Source: an uncultured bacterium (GTDB lineage Bacteria > Patescibacteriota > Minisyncoccia > Phycocordibacterales > CAIRYW01). Taken from it: 64,000 bases of DNA. Of this stretch, positions 38,367 to 41,201 are shown piece by piece. The stretch covers positions 464,606 to 528,605 of the forward strand of contig CAVYBO010000002.1 in NCBI GenBank assembly GCA_963766885.1, read 5' to 3'. The notes beneath the pieces are model-generated. The model was not told where the DNA came from and ran no database searches. It saw only the letters and a list, made by a program, of their open reading frames with translations. How positions within the stretch are numbered: position 1 is the first letter of the stretch; every line of letters starts with the position of its first letter. The position numbers and the translations under genes were made by a program.

Positions 38367-39323
38367 TCAAAAGATTGTAAATTTTCTTGATTTTCCGCAA
38401 AATCCTTTTTTGGTTTTTGTCCGCAGTAATCTATGTTGGGGAAAATTAACGTATCCCAAGAAATCAATTCCTTGGTGGAATTTTTTGATAGTAATTTTTT
38501 TAGGATGTAAACCCAGCTCCAACTTTTCCGAAAGGAAATTTTGTAATGCTGGGATTATTTGTTTCAAATAATCTTCGTTTTGCGATATTATAATGAAATC
38601 GTCCGTATATCGGACATAATTTTTTATCTTCAACCCATGTTTTACGAACTGATCAAATTCATTCATATAAATATTGGTAAACATTTGGGAAGTCAGGTTG
38701 CCGATTGGTATTCCTTTTGCGCGAAGCGCAAAACCTCTCTCTCTCTCTCTCTCTCTCTCTCTCTCCTGCAATACCGGCTGGGCTGTATAACTGGAAATAA
38801 TTTCTTCAAGAAGATTCAGTGTCTTTTCATCTTTGATTTTATTTTTCAAAATTTCAAAAAGAATTTGGTGGTCAACGCTGTCAAAGAATTTTTGTATGTC
38901 GCATTTAAGCGCATAACAAGTTTGCGTGTTATTTCGACTTGCCTTGCGGAGCAGAGTAGACAATGTTTCCACTCCTTTGTGAGTTCCTTTGCCAATACGA
39001 CAAGAAAAAGAATTGGAAATAAATGTCGGTTCGAATACCGGATTAAGCACTTTGAATATGGCGTGGTGAAGAACTCTGTCTCGAACGGTGGCTTTATGAA
39101 TATGTCTAACTTTCGGATCACGAATCCAGAATCCTTTGTATGCTCCATGCTTGTAGCTTTCGTTCTTCAAATCCCTGTAAAGCTGAAAAATATTTTCCTC
39201 CAACTCAAGCTCGAAATGAATCACATCTGGTTTGTTGCCCTTGTCCGATTTGAATACATCCCAAGCTTTGAAAAGATTAGTCGGAGAAATTATTATAGGA
39301 AATAAATTATTGTAAATTTTCAT
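38367..39323 (-). CDS. diversity-generating retroelement (DGR) reverse transcriptase
   Basis: RT motifs are present. Motif 4 has the DGR-specific IGNLTSQ (GIPIGNLTSQMFTN). The catalytic motif is YTDD (RYTDDFIII). The start was chosen at MKIYNNLFP (39323). The longer ORF up to 39818 is template repeat (TR) read-through. Confidence 0.85.
   Translation of the reverse strand: MKIYNNLFPIIISPTNLFKAWDVFKSDKGNKPDVIHFELELEENIFQLYRDLKNESYKHGAYKGFWIRDPKVRHIHKATVRDRVLHHAIFKVLNPVFEPTFISNSFSCRIGKGTHKGVETLSTLLRKASRNNTQTCYALKCDIQKFFDSVDHQILFEILKNKIKDEKTLNLLEEIISSYTAQPVLQERERERERERGFALRAKGIPIGNLTSQMFTNIYMNEFDQFVKHGLKIKNYVRYTDDFIIISQNEDYLKQIIPALQNFLSEKLELGLHPKKITIKKFHQGIDFLGYVNFPQHRLLRTKTKKGFCGKSRKFTIF
38735..38764. 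repeat. (CT)15 dinucleotide microsatellite inside the RT coding sequence
   Basis: 30 nt of perfect CT repeat. On the coding strand it is (GA)n encoding ERERERERER between RT motifs 2 and 3. Confidence 0.9.
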
Positions 39324-39674
39324 ATGAATGATTTTGATATACCGATTTTTAAAAAATCCTACAATCTGTACAAAGATTTCTACGAGATTCGTTTGTCCGT
39401 TCCCAAACAGGATAGATACACTCTCTGGCAGAAATGCGAAAGCACTTTGATTGAGATTATCGAGCGTATTCTTCTGGCAAGTCAGCAGTCTAAAATGGAG
39501 AAACTTCCTACTCTGGAGAGAACAAGCGTCAAATTGAATTTCCTCCGAGTTTGTATCCGTCTGATGAAAGACACCAAAGCAATCGATACCAAAAAATATA
39601 TTGTCATCGAAGCGCATCTTGATGAAATTGGAAAAATGCTTGGAGGATGGATAAAGTCCACCAAGGAGCGATAA
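39324..39674 (+). CDS. avd: DGR accessory variability determinant (Avd), encoded on the strand opposite to the RT and TR
   Basis: 116 aa, about the size of the Avd four-helix bundle. The C-terminal HLDEIGKMLGGWIKSTKER closely parallels the Bordetella phage BPP-1 bAvd C-terminus (AEVGRILGSWIARVNRKG). Its start ATG (39324) abuts the RT start codon, forming the divergent junction CAT|ATG. Confidence 0.72.
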   Translation: MNDFDIPIFKKSYNLYKDFYEIRLSVPKQDRYTLWQKCESTLIEIIERILLASQQSKMEKLPTLERTSVKLNFLRVCIRLMKDTKAIDTKKYIVIEAHLDEIGKMLGGWIKSTKER

Positions 39675-39676
39675 CA

Positions 39677-39705
39677 GAAACTCCCACTGTAAAAGTGGGA
39701 GTTTC
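39677..39705. promoter_or_regulatory. perfect 11-bp stem-loop between avd and TR
   Basis: GAAACTCCCAC-TGTAAAA-GTGGGAGTTTC. It lies immediately 3' of avd on the plus strand and immediately 3' of TR on the minus-sense TR RNA. Confidence 0.45.
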
Positions 39706-39725
39706 TTCGGATAGAGTTGTGACTG

Positions 39726-39840
39726 CCGGGAGGCGGAGACACTGAGGTTGTCGTTGCGGTTGTTGTCCCAGTTGTTGTTGACGTTCAGACCCTTGGCATC
39801 GAAGTTGCCGAGGTTCACACGGTTGCCATTCGAGTCGAGA
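39726..39840 (-). repeat. DGR template repeat (TR), 115 bp, sense strand is minus
   Basis: Direct repeat of 40200..40314. All 18 mismatches are T on the plus strand, meaning A on the minus strand, in this copy. Its minus-sense translation is rich in AAC codons (NVNNNWDNNRNDN). Confidence 0.88.
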
Positions 39841-40118
39841 AATTGCTTTCTTCCGTCCGCGTCACTGAGATTTGAGGTTTACCATCTTTGCAGATCTATA
39901 TCCTCTCATCTCTGAATTTTATTTGGGAACAATTTTTTTCAAAATATTTCCACTAGAAAAAAGCAAGAAGTTCTCTCTATCCTTGTCGCACTCTGCCGTA
40001 ATCCTTGAACTACTGGCACTCTGGCGAATCTCAGGTGAGATATCCCGCGAACTTGAACCGTAACCCAAGTTGCATTAGCAAGATTTATAAATATTAACTG
40101 GTTGTATGTAAAAGACAA

Positions 40119-40152
40119 GAGCCTCCGGCAAAAAAATTTTGCGCGGAGGCTC
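40119..40152 (-). terminator. intrinsic terminator or GC hairpin downstream of the DGR target gene and VR
   Basis: 9-bp stem GAGCCTCCG/CGGAGGCTC. On the minus strand the stem is followed by TTGTCTTTT. It is 40 nt downstream of the target stop codon. Confidence 0.45.
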
Positions 40153-40190
40153 AAGGATTCAAGAGGGACAAGCCCTCTAGGGTTCAAGTT

Positions 40191-40970
40191 TCACTGCTTC
40201 CGGGAGGCGGAGACACCGAGGTTGTCGCGGCGGCTGCCGTCCCAGTCGTCGTCGACGAGCAGACCCCCGGCACCGAAGCCGCCGAGGATCACACGGTTGC
40301 CATCCGAGTCGAGATCAACGCAGCGAACGTAGACCTTCTCGAACAGACGCTCGCCGGTGGCGAGGAAGTGGCCGATGATGGTGTAGACCATCACTTGCGC
40401 CTTCGGCGTTTCCTCGTCTTTCGAGAGGAGAGCCTGCTGTTCGGTCCAGTTTTTGCTCGTTGAGTCGGCAACGGGTTCCTTGCGGACCAGTTGCCAGCCG
40501 ACTTCGCCTTTGTCCTTGGCGAACGATTCCTTGTTGTACCAGTCCTGGTTGTAGAACGGGCACTTGCTCTTGGCGATGCCACGGATGTCGAGGATCGAGA
40601 GTGGAAACACGGCGACGAGAATGTGCGTGTCCTTGCAGGACCGGAGCACTTCCTCGGAGAACGGAACTTCGGCCAGAGTGGCGATCTGCTGCTTCGAAGG
40701 GTTAACCCCAAAGTACTTGATTGCTTCCTCGATACCGAAGAAGTTCGCTCCCATGATTTCGCGGGCTTTGAGCCATTGCGGATTCAGGCTTGTGGATGAT
40801 TTGTCCGACAGCCAGAGATTGTCCACTGCAAATCCTGCGAGTCTAGTAAGATACTCCTGATCGATGTTGATACGTTCTGCTACTGCATCGGCGTGATCGC
40901 CGAGTGTAACCCAGAAGCGTTGTTGTGCGCCGTTTATTTCACCGGCTGGAACTTGAGTCCAATTTTTCAT
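40191..40970 (-). CDS. DGR target (variable) protein. The ORF is open up to a GTG at 41093, and the ATG at about 40970 is the preferred start.
   Basis: GC is about 52%. The C-terminal ...NRVILGGFGAGGLLVDDDWDGSRRDNLGVSASRKQ is encoded by the VR. There is no signal peptide. Confidence 0.68.
   Translation of the reverse strand: MKNWTQVPAGEINGAQQRFWVTLGDHADAVAERINIDQEYLTRLAGFAVDNLWLSDKSSTSLNPQWLKAREIMGANFFGIEEAIKYFGVNPSKQQIATLAEVPFSEEVLRSCKDTHILVAVFPLSILDIRGIAKSKCPFYNQDWYNKESFAKDKGEVGWQLVRKEPVADSTSKNWTEQQALLSKDEETPKAQVMVYTIIGHFLATGERLFEKVYVRCVDLDSDGNRVILGGFGAGGLLVDDDWDGSRRDNLGVSASRKQ
40200..40314 (-). repeat. DGR variable repeat (VR) forming the 3' end of the target gene
   Basis: 115 bp and 84% identical to the TR. 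Every one of the 18 differences falls at a TR adenine on the coding sense. It encodes the last 38 codons of the target ORF. Confidence 0.88.
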
Positions 40971-41201
40971 GATGCGTGGTTTCTTTCTGTTAGCTCTTTT
41001 GAAATTATCGGGAGAGCGACTAGTGAGAATACGATCTCGGATATTACGTCTTGTCTTTGTGAGACGAGCTTTATATGTCCTTCGAAAGGGCACAAAAAGC
41101 TCGTCTCAAGCAGTGATAACTTGTCAAAGAAGTTTGGGTATATTATATCACATTTTATAGACTTTTGCAAGTTCAAAATAACTCCTATTTTATAATTAAA
41201 T

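Follow-up and report, generated by a model that had tools for sequence, protein, structure and literature searches.

The reverse transcriptase cassette and its target

The stretch analysed here, called the window throughout, comprises 64,000 nucleotides (nt) of contig CAVYBO010000002.1 from an uncultured member of the Patescibacteria and carries a diversity-generating retroelement (DGR), with genes for a reverse transcriptase (RT) and the accessory variability determinant Avd, together with a template repeat (TR) as well as a variable repeat (VR) at the end of a target gene. In ascending coordinates the gene order is ComEC, RNase H, RecJ, RT, avd, TR, target, pgk, tpiA, a 681-aa protein lacking Pfam matches, three pilin-like genes, PilC and PilB; open reading frames (ORFs) and profile matches put RT, TR, VR and target on the minus strand and avd on the plus strand. 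A first-pass annotation of this DNA had named the parts of the element, and our analysis found every one of them, with the same coordinates. It had set the target gene between pgk/tpiA and the type IV pilus block, which has to be corrected, as the element is located between recJ and pgk.

A direct repeat joins 39723..39840 and 40197..40314, and within it the TR (39726..39840, minus strand) has 115 nt with 31 adenines, 18 of which are altered in the VR (40200..40314, minus strand). The VR forms, as had been proposed, the final 38 codons of the target. Recounting the 115-nt core gave the same figure as the first-pass annotation, namely 18 mismatches, 18/18 at TR adenines (chance about 4e-13), all of them in codon positions 1 or 2 and chiefly in AAC codons. 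The 18 changes in the VR are adenine-specific without exception, which means that the element has diversified this repeat, and the cleanness of the pair implies that any inactivation is recent. A search of the 64-kb window for a second VR or target copy returned none, so that further VR or target candidates were rejected in favour of one VR and one target.

The GC-rich 3' end of the VR, GTCTCCGCCTCCCGG (40200..40214, minus strand), is the same in TR and VR, and divergence starts right after it. By analogy with phage BPP-1, from which the name is taken (PMC5758913), it would be the initiation of mutagenic homing (IMH) site, with IMH* after the TR, in the expected arrangement. Folding prediction gives a hairpin, AGAGGG-CTTGT-CCCTCT, 13 nt past the target stop codon (40162..40178, minus strand), the position and sequence of which are kept across 36 loci and which resembles the inverted repeat downstream of IMH in BPP-1. 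It is followed by a family-conserved, terminator-like hairpin, GAGCCTCCG...CGGAGGCTC and then a T-run (40111..40152, minus strand; fold z-score -5.8), that would end the target transcript.

The avd gene (39324..39674, plus strand) encodes 116 aa that match NF033474 DivGenRetAVD at 85.6 bits (cut-off 80, equivalog) and PF22296 at 66.3 bits (cut-off 40), so the Avd-like protein proposed at this place passes curated hidden Markov model (HMM) cut-offs. The C-terminus had also been likened closely to that of bAvd from BPP-1; this is not borne out, since a phmmer search of Protein Data Bank (PDB) sequences gave nothing at E < 0.01 and the match is at the level of the family HMM only. The RT gene (38237..39323, minus strand) is interrupted. 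Its main ORF (38367..39323, 318 aa) matches RVT_1 at 1e-27 and has both motifs that had been read from it, motif 4 (IPIGNLTSQ, containing IGNLTSQ) and the catalytic YTDD, and alignments place the conserved tail in two other frames as far as 38237. Between motif 3 and IGNLTSQ there is a perfect (GA)15.5 microsatellite (38735..38765, minus strand; 100% identity over 15.5 copies in Tandem Repeats Finder), which is in frame in the window and encodes ERERERERER. With the 84%-identical protein P0002 as query, the best relative of solved structure is entry 8ub7, annotated 'Reverse transcriptase' (E 3e-44), which we take to be the BPP-1 bRT; the loop bearing the tract is a 16-residue insertion relative to it.

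Searches of NCBIfam with the RT produced sub-threshold matches only, to group II, retron and Drt models, as might be expected if the repeat pair were a chance or ordinary duplication beside an unrelated retron or group II-type RT. This explanation is already refuted by the A-only mismatches with their chance probability, by an Avd above its equivalog cut-off, by 8ub7 as the best solved relative of the RT, and by the recurrence of the same cassette and the same A-only pattern in dozens of loci.

The target gene (40191..40970, minus strand) encodes 259 aa, for which the predicted structure shows an N-terminal helical hairpin and a C-terminal domain of the C-type lectin (CLec) and formylglycine-generating enzyme (FGE) type. 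A GTG start at 41093 was rejected because the family (about 255 aa) and an identical 259-aa database protein begin at the ATG at 40970. The family comprises 2978 clusters at 50% identity (E <= 0.001). A check of the target against HMM databases for a CLec or FGE fold had been suggested; there was no match in Pfam or NCBIfam, nor did the family profile match any PDB sequence, and it is the structure model that gives such a fold. AlphaFold with a diverse 86-sequence alignment reached a predicted local distance difference test score (pLDDT) of 94 and a predicted template modelling score of 0.81, and replaced an unusable run with 40 close homologues (pLDDT 46.8). According to this model the C-terminus would have the variation-tolerant CLec/FGE fold and carry the VR, which agrees with the ligand-binding fold envisaged in the first-pass annotation. 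A role in host or particle attachment, also envisaged there, is not supported, as the protein has neither a signal peptide nor a membrane segment (maximal 19-residue Kyte-Doolittle hydropathy 1.55). Compared with the variable proteins TvpA of Treponema denticola (2y3c) and TaqVP of Thermus aquaticus (5vf4), the target has no sequence similarity, even by profile, a differing N-terminal helical hairpin, and no lipoprotein or secretion signal. A confident CLec-fold model, together with the absence of an export signal, in a family of about 3000 clusters without a Pfam model bears on the question of whether the DGR targets of the candidate phyla radiation (CPR) act intracellularly.

The target gene is GC-rich, as first noted (0.55-0.65 against about 0.38 around it). 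Across the family the median is 56.6%, against 41% for the flanks and 36% for the RT, and the target lies above its flank in 77/79 loci. Seen over the window and L001-L083, the gene thus forms a family-wide compositional island, about 15 GC points over its flanks and about 20 over its own RT gene. Horizontal transfer as a special cause of the high GC was rejected, because an excess found throughout the family does not point to recent acquisition by this genome.

All relatives of the element belong to the Patescibacteria/Paceibacterota, in accordance with the CPR-like host that had been suggested. The closest (L001-L003) have the same order with a reversed, abutting avd in another neighbourhood (thrS...dnaE). 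L001 and L002/L003, which share the same RT and come from different samples, are separated by 4 differences over 6.1 kb; two fall in the VR, each at a TR-adenine position, and this sister element is, judging from these differences, mutagenically active. Searching species-representative genomes with the target family yielded 78 loci across the Patescibacteria, about 40 of which have the full cassette (target, a spacer of about 350 nt, TR, reversed avd, RT), all with clean A-only TR/VR differences. About 35 loci have a target homologue without avd or RT nearby, and in four (L035, L056, L067, L077) just the last part of the RT stands right after the target gene, which resembles a deletion derivative of the cassette. 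Six others (L021, L023, L029, L043, L058, L064) have 2-3 tandem target paralogues, each with a VR matching one TR, and are multi-target cassettes; L029 contains two RT copies.

Reportedly, CPR DGRs were first surveyed by Paul et al. 2017. In the set of Wu et al. 2018 (PMC5758913), architecture B3, with the order TR-(avd reversed)-RT, makes up 90% of the CPR elements, and Roux et al. 2021 (PMC8144416) place CPR DGRs in clade 2, with targets typically without membrane or known domains. The element shares with these DGRs the gene order (target-VR, TR, reversed avd, RT), the host lineage and the adenine-specific mutagenesis; its target is likewise without a recognisable membrane or Pfam domain, and the VR probably lies in a CLec fold. 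As cassette order and host match the published CPR DGRs, the element is an ordinary member of this known type, Wu architecture B3 and Roux clade 2. It is one more CPR DGR beside hundreds catalogued, and the comparative findings matter more, the clade-wide features of interest being the putatively repeat-gated RT and the structured TR leader.

The predicted template transcript and its leader

Directly 5' of the TR lies a structured leader RNA of 245 nt (39839..40084, minus strand), for which RNAalifold on 36 loci gives 9 helices and 62 base pairs, 49/62 of them with compensatory changes. In this alignment the share of paired cells is 96.6%; column shuffles give 83%, with 0/500 reaching the observed value, and sliding the partners by 1-3 columns leaves 40-50%. 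In the alignment with L001 the VR-TR spacer is better conserved than the coding regions. A covariance model (R1) recovered the full-length leader in 39 independent metagenome loci (37-258 bits) and a single copy in the window; in the loci compared (e.g. L116) the copy is on the RT strand, about 1.1-1.4 kb upstream of the RT repeat.

No Rfam 15 family reached its gathering score in the window or in 27 related loci. The RT-10 motif, from the TR-RT spacer of BPP-1, and the RT-16 motif were described by Weinberg et al. 2017 (PMC5737381) and, like the leader, are structured RNAs beside RT genes. The match to RT-16 (RF03019) at 39845..39965 stays below threshold, with 27.1 bits where gathering requires 50 (E 0.32), and a search of 13 more loci up to E 0.05 found no RT-16. 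What the 3' half of the leader has in common with RT-16 in this weak match is an outer helix, an AUAAAAUnCAG stretch and GGUGA. An identity of the leader with RT-16 RNA was thus not confirmed, the score being below gathering in the window and in the 27 related loci. The leader also differs from RT-10 in being 5' and not 3' of the TR. Three loci carry a LOOT RNA (RF03000, 74-80 bits) on the opposite strand just outside the cassette (L007 3545..3666, L012 3544..3676, L009 6800..6927); none was found in the window.

A TATAAT-like box precedes the conserved 5' end of the leader by about 7 nt. On the other side, 3' of the TR, the 36-locus comparison shows a hairpin with an 11-bp stem (GAAACTCCCAC/GTGGGAGTTTC) and a T-rich tail (39676..39712, minus strand), at the same position in nearly all of the 36 loci, with lineage-specific, covarying stems. 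It is probably the terminator of a TR RNA, bidirectional with avd, and together these features point to a separate TR RNA of about 410 nt. Transcribed from about 40084, this RNA would run through the 245-nt leader, then the 115-nt TR with an IMH*-like end, to the hairpin/terminator at 39712..39676. RT with Avd would then copy the TR to cDNA, misincorporating opposite adenines, and the cDNA would replace the 3'-terminal VR of the target, recoding up to about 20 Asn-type codons. The recoded residues would lie on the ligand-binding face of the CLec-fold domain, in a target that would be a soluble protein of 259 aa lacking an export signal. The covarying leader offers a defined RNA for questions of RT/Avd recruitment or priming in a DGR other than that of BPP-1, and a sensitive marker for such elements.

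In BPP-1 (mtd-VR, avd, TR, brt) avd shares the strand of the TR and is located upstream of it, and part of the gene serves as the 5' flank of the template RNA, whereas here avd is reversed, with the TR on one side and the RT on the other, and a dedicated, structured, non-coding domain serves as the 5' flank. Unlike in BPP-1, moreover, the RT has the 16-residue, repeat-carrying loop insertion, and the element is chromosomal and cellular, not phage-borne, with a target that is no tail fibre.

The ATG of avd and that of the RT abut back to back (CATATG, 39321..39326). A reversed avd abutting the RT is also found in L001-L003 and about 40 further loci, the gap between the two start codons being 0-15 nt across the family (5000/5001 in L001), and about 45 nt around the start codons are identical between the window and L001. 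With abutting divergent starts, the promoter and ribosome-binding region of avd and of the RT must each lie inside the other gene. A promoter-like site, TTGAAA-17-TATTAT (39268..39296, plus strand; 10/12), inside the first RT codons is a candidate promoter of avd. For the target, a consensus scan gave TTGCAA-17-TGnTATAAT (41142..41170, minus strand; 10/12, with an extended -10), which is conserved in L001 and is a candidate promoter. Between this site and the target start codon, in the putative 5' untranslated region, lies an inverted repeat with 23-nt arms that are 87% complementary (41060..41108, minus strand); it is kept nearly identical in L001 while the flanks and the N-terminal coding region of the target differ, and may be a regulatory hairpin.

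Two frameshifts in the assembled RT gene

RT homologues have 349-357 aa, against 318 aa in the window. Three-frame translation and a nucleotide alignment against L001, a sister cassette of 82% identity, trace the difference to two 1-nt deletions in A-runs, 24 nt apart on the minus strand. An A6 run (38406..38411) between TKK and RILRK is 1 nt too short and shows as a 1-nt gap against L001; an A4 run (38382..38385) between IKK and NLQSF is likewise 1 nt too short. The RT tail is consequently spread over three frames, as TKK, RILRKIKK and NLQSFENG...SLQSYLGVLSHANAYK, so that the conserved tail SLQSYLGVLSHA... is out of frame, about 45 C-terminal residues are cut off and the stop at 38367 is premature. 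The assembled sequence therefore holds no intact full-length RT frame, and this contradicts the earlier description of the DGR as 'complete'. Among about 38 relatives, a nearby shift is seen only in L033, which also has TR/VR decay.

With its C-terminal region lost to two 1-nt deletions, this copy of the DGR has most likely been switched off by recent lesions. That the frameshifts are real is the reading towards which we lean, and it has to be weighed against a fully functional element with consensus or assembly errors in A-rich sequence and a true RT of 362 aa. Each lesion removes 1 nt from a homopolymer A-run and the two lie 24 nt apart, as is typical of long-read or consensus errors; adding one A per site restores a perfect 362-aa ORF collinear with P0002; the tail is stop-free and well conserved; the TR/VR pair has no non-A decay; and the source contig, at 596 kb, may derive from a long-read assembly. 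Against such errors, the rest of the window is undamaged: ORFs of the 900-1150 aa class (up to 1152 aa) are uninterrupted, long intact ORFs contain 134 A/T runs of at least 6 nt, and 12 neighbouring genes of the 64-kb window give full-length Pfam domains. A uniform sequencing error is for these reasons an improbable source of the lesions, and two errors within 24 nt would be exceptional in a window otherwise undamaged. We consequently regard assembly error as the less probable account, although one to be taken seriously.

Production of a full-length RT in spite of the frameshifts, by programmed ribosomal frameshifting or by transcriptional slippage at the A-runs, is very improbable. Shifting by -1 at ACC AAA AAA G, the first site, would reproduce the homologous TKKRILRK exactly, but two successive -1 events would be required, the second site (AAG AAA A) is poorly slippery, and the runs are short (6 and 4 nt). 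About 36 of the roughly 38 relatives, moreover, encode the region in one frame (L033 having the single shift nearby), which argues against a conserved recoding site.

Taken as a whole, the locus is with high probability a chromosomal DGR of the Patescibacteria type with a truncated RT, a separate TR RNA and a (GA) tract. Several points weigh against this. The VR bases, the lengths of the A-runs and the length of the (GA) tract were read from the assembled contig; one independent Logan contig, L005, matches the window exactly over 39224..41122, VR included, but ends before the 3' end of the RT, and look-ups with RecJ at two start codons, the RT and the tail ORF found no record of another assembly covering that end. 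The RT start codon abuts that of the divergent avd, which bears on RT expression, and it is from sequence that the ends of the transcripts, the promoters and the hairpin's role as a terminator are predicted.

Repeat tracts in the RT loop of related elements

The (GA)15.5 tract is the sole dinucleotide repeat of at least 5 units in the 64 kb. In an unselected genome set (36 distinct RTs; 586 kb of sequence), a (GA)n of at least 13 nt occurs at the same RT site in 6/36 RTs, and 6/6 are out of frame there; 2/36 have G10 at this site, one in frame and one out. All 28 repeat-less RTs are in frame across the loop (28/28; two are shifted elsewhere; Fisher p about 1e-6), and 7/8 of the dinucleotide repeats of at least 12 nt in the 586 kb fall in this RT loop.

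A metagenome scan blind to reading frame, for (GA)7 with the PIGNLT codons after it, gave at least 120 loci, and ten tract cases were checked by eye. Among the matches listed, 104 distinct tract-bearing RTs have both halves, with 19 in frame and 85 out (about 82% OFF), which differs from one third in frame (binomial p 8e-4); the offsets 0/+1/+2 are represented by 24/49/46 matches, the downstream RT halves are open (median 155-156 codons) and equally conserved (58-60% identity) in all offset classes, and OFF frames reach a stop about 35 nt past the tract. Two loci from different assemblies, L096 and L191, are 99.1% identical over 1.9 kb and have tracts of 15 nt (OFF) and 19 nt (ON), a difference of two GA units.

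These comparisons suggest that across the relatives the tract acts as a phase-variable, slipped-strand ON/OFF switch for the RT, with OFF favoured. A neutral account is possible, though we hold it the less probable of outcomes: a runaway expansion of an RERE-coding loop would kill RT genes, and the out-of-frame copies would be dead elements nearing loss. In repeat-less relatives there is indeed a short, RE-rich loop from which slippage could start; the loop, being an insertion when set against the 8ub7 RT, is probably permissive; and RT loss does occur, as the many target homologues without an adjacent RT and the loci with RT remnants only indicate. Dead elements would nevertheless not be expected to look as the out-of-frame copies do, with downstream halves intact and as conserved as in the in-frame ones, TR/VR pairs as clean as in intact elements, and +1 and +2 offsets equally frequent (49 and 46 among the matches listed). 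The pair L096/L191, OFF and ON at 99.1% identity, the poly-G tracts at the same RT site in other lineages and the confinement to this loop of nearly all dinucleotide repeats of at least 12 nt in the unselected set (7/8) also speak against neutral expansion.

Poly-G or tetranucleotide contingency tracts are found in Neisseria, Haemophilus and Campylobacter. The RT tract resembles such simple sequence repeat (SSR) contingency loci, of which the (AG)12 tract in a type III methyltransferase of Mycoplasma mycoides is an example (PMC3498834), in that a perfect intragenic repeat sets the reading frame by its length and that, among the relatives, both OFF frames are populated and are followed by a stop soon after the tract, and the close strains L096 and L191 differ in tract length. 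It differs from them in that the gene it would gate is a mutagenic DGR RT, so that one hypermutation device would control another, and in that the hosts are uncultivated CPR bacteria, not pathogens. In the searchable literature on DGRs with phase variation, SSRs or contingency loci (subscription journals being outside this coverage), we found no report of a repeat-gated RT, nor of a neutral gene-killing expansion in a DGR RT; the accessible CPR DGR literature gave no description of the RT-loop SSR, the 245-nt leader 5' of the TR, or the abutting avd/RT starts.

The joint proposal, that the RT-loop repeat is a contingency locus with most alleles OFF and that the dedicated template RNA of about 410 nt with its nine-helix leader represents a family outside Rfam 15, stands for us evenly poised between acceptance and doubt. 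The control of DGR activity is poorly understood, and a tract toggling the RT frame would, if true, be a simple and testable regulatory principle, in which a stochastic hypermutation switch gates a targeted hypermutation machine through changes of one repeat unit. Alleles that are OFF (about 82% among the matches listed) yet otherwise intact could explain many of the inactive-looking DGRs in metagenomes.

Repeat-bearing RT loops were recorded in L010, L021, L034, L040, L046, L066, L070, L071 and L084-L203, mostly as (GA)n, with poly-G in some lineages. Tracts also occur elsewhere in DGR cassettes, as poly-G at the avd/RT junction (L050 5472..5480), as G12 between TR and avd (L083 5196..5207), and as (GA)7.5 just after the RT (L055 6583..6597).

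Further along the window, the type IV pilus genes have on either side a large Ser/Thr/Gly-rich protein (43208..45253 and 49777..53235) with no or marginal Pfam matches, and both are probably surface proteins. Of the A/T homopolymers noted in the window, the longest is a T9 run (46657..46665; the coding strand reads A9) among the first codons of a GspH-like pilin gene (46224..46682) beside pilC, and is a possible slippage site.

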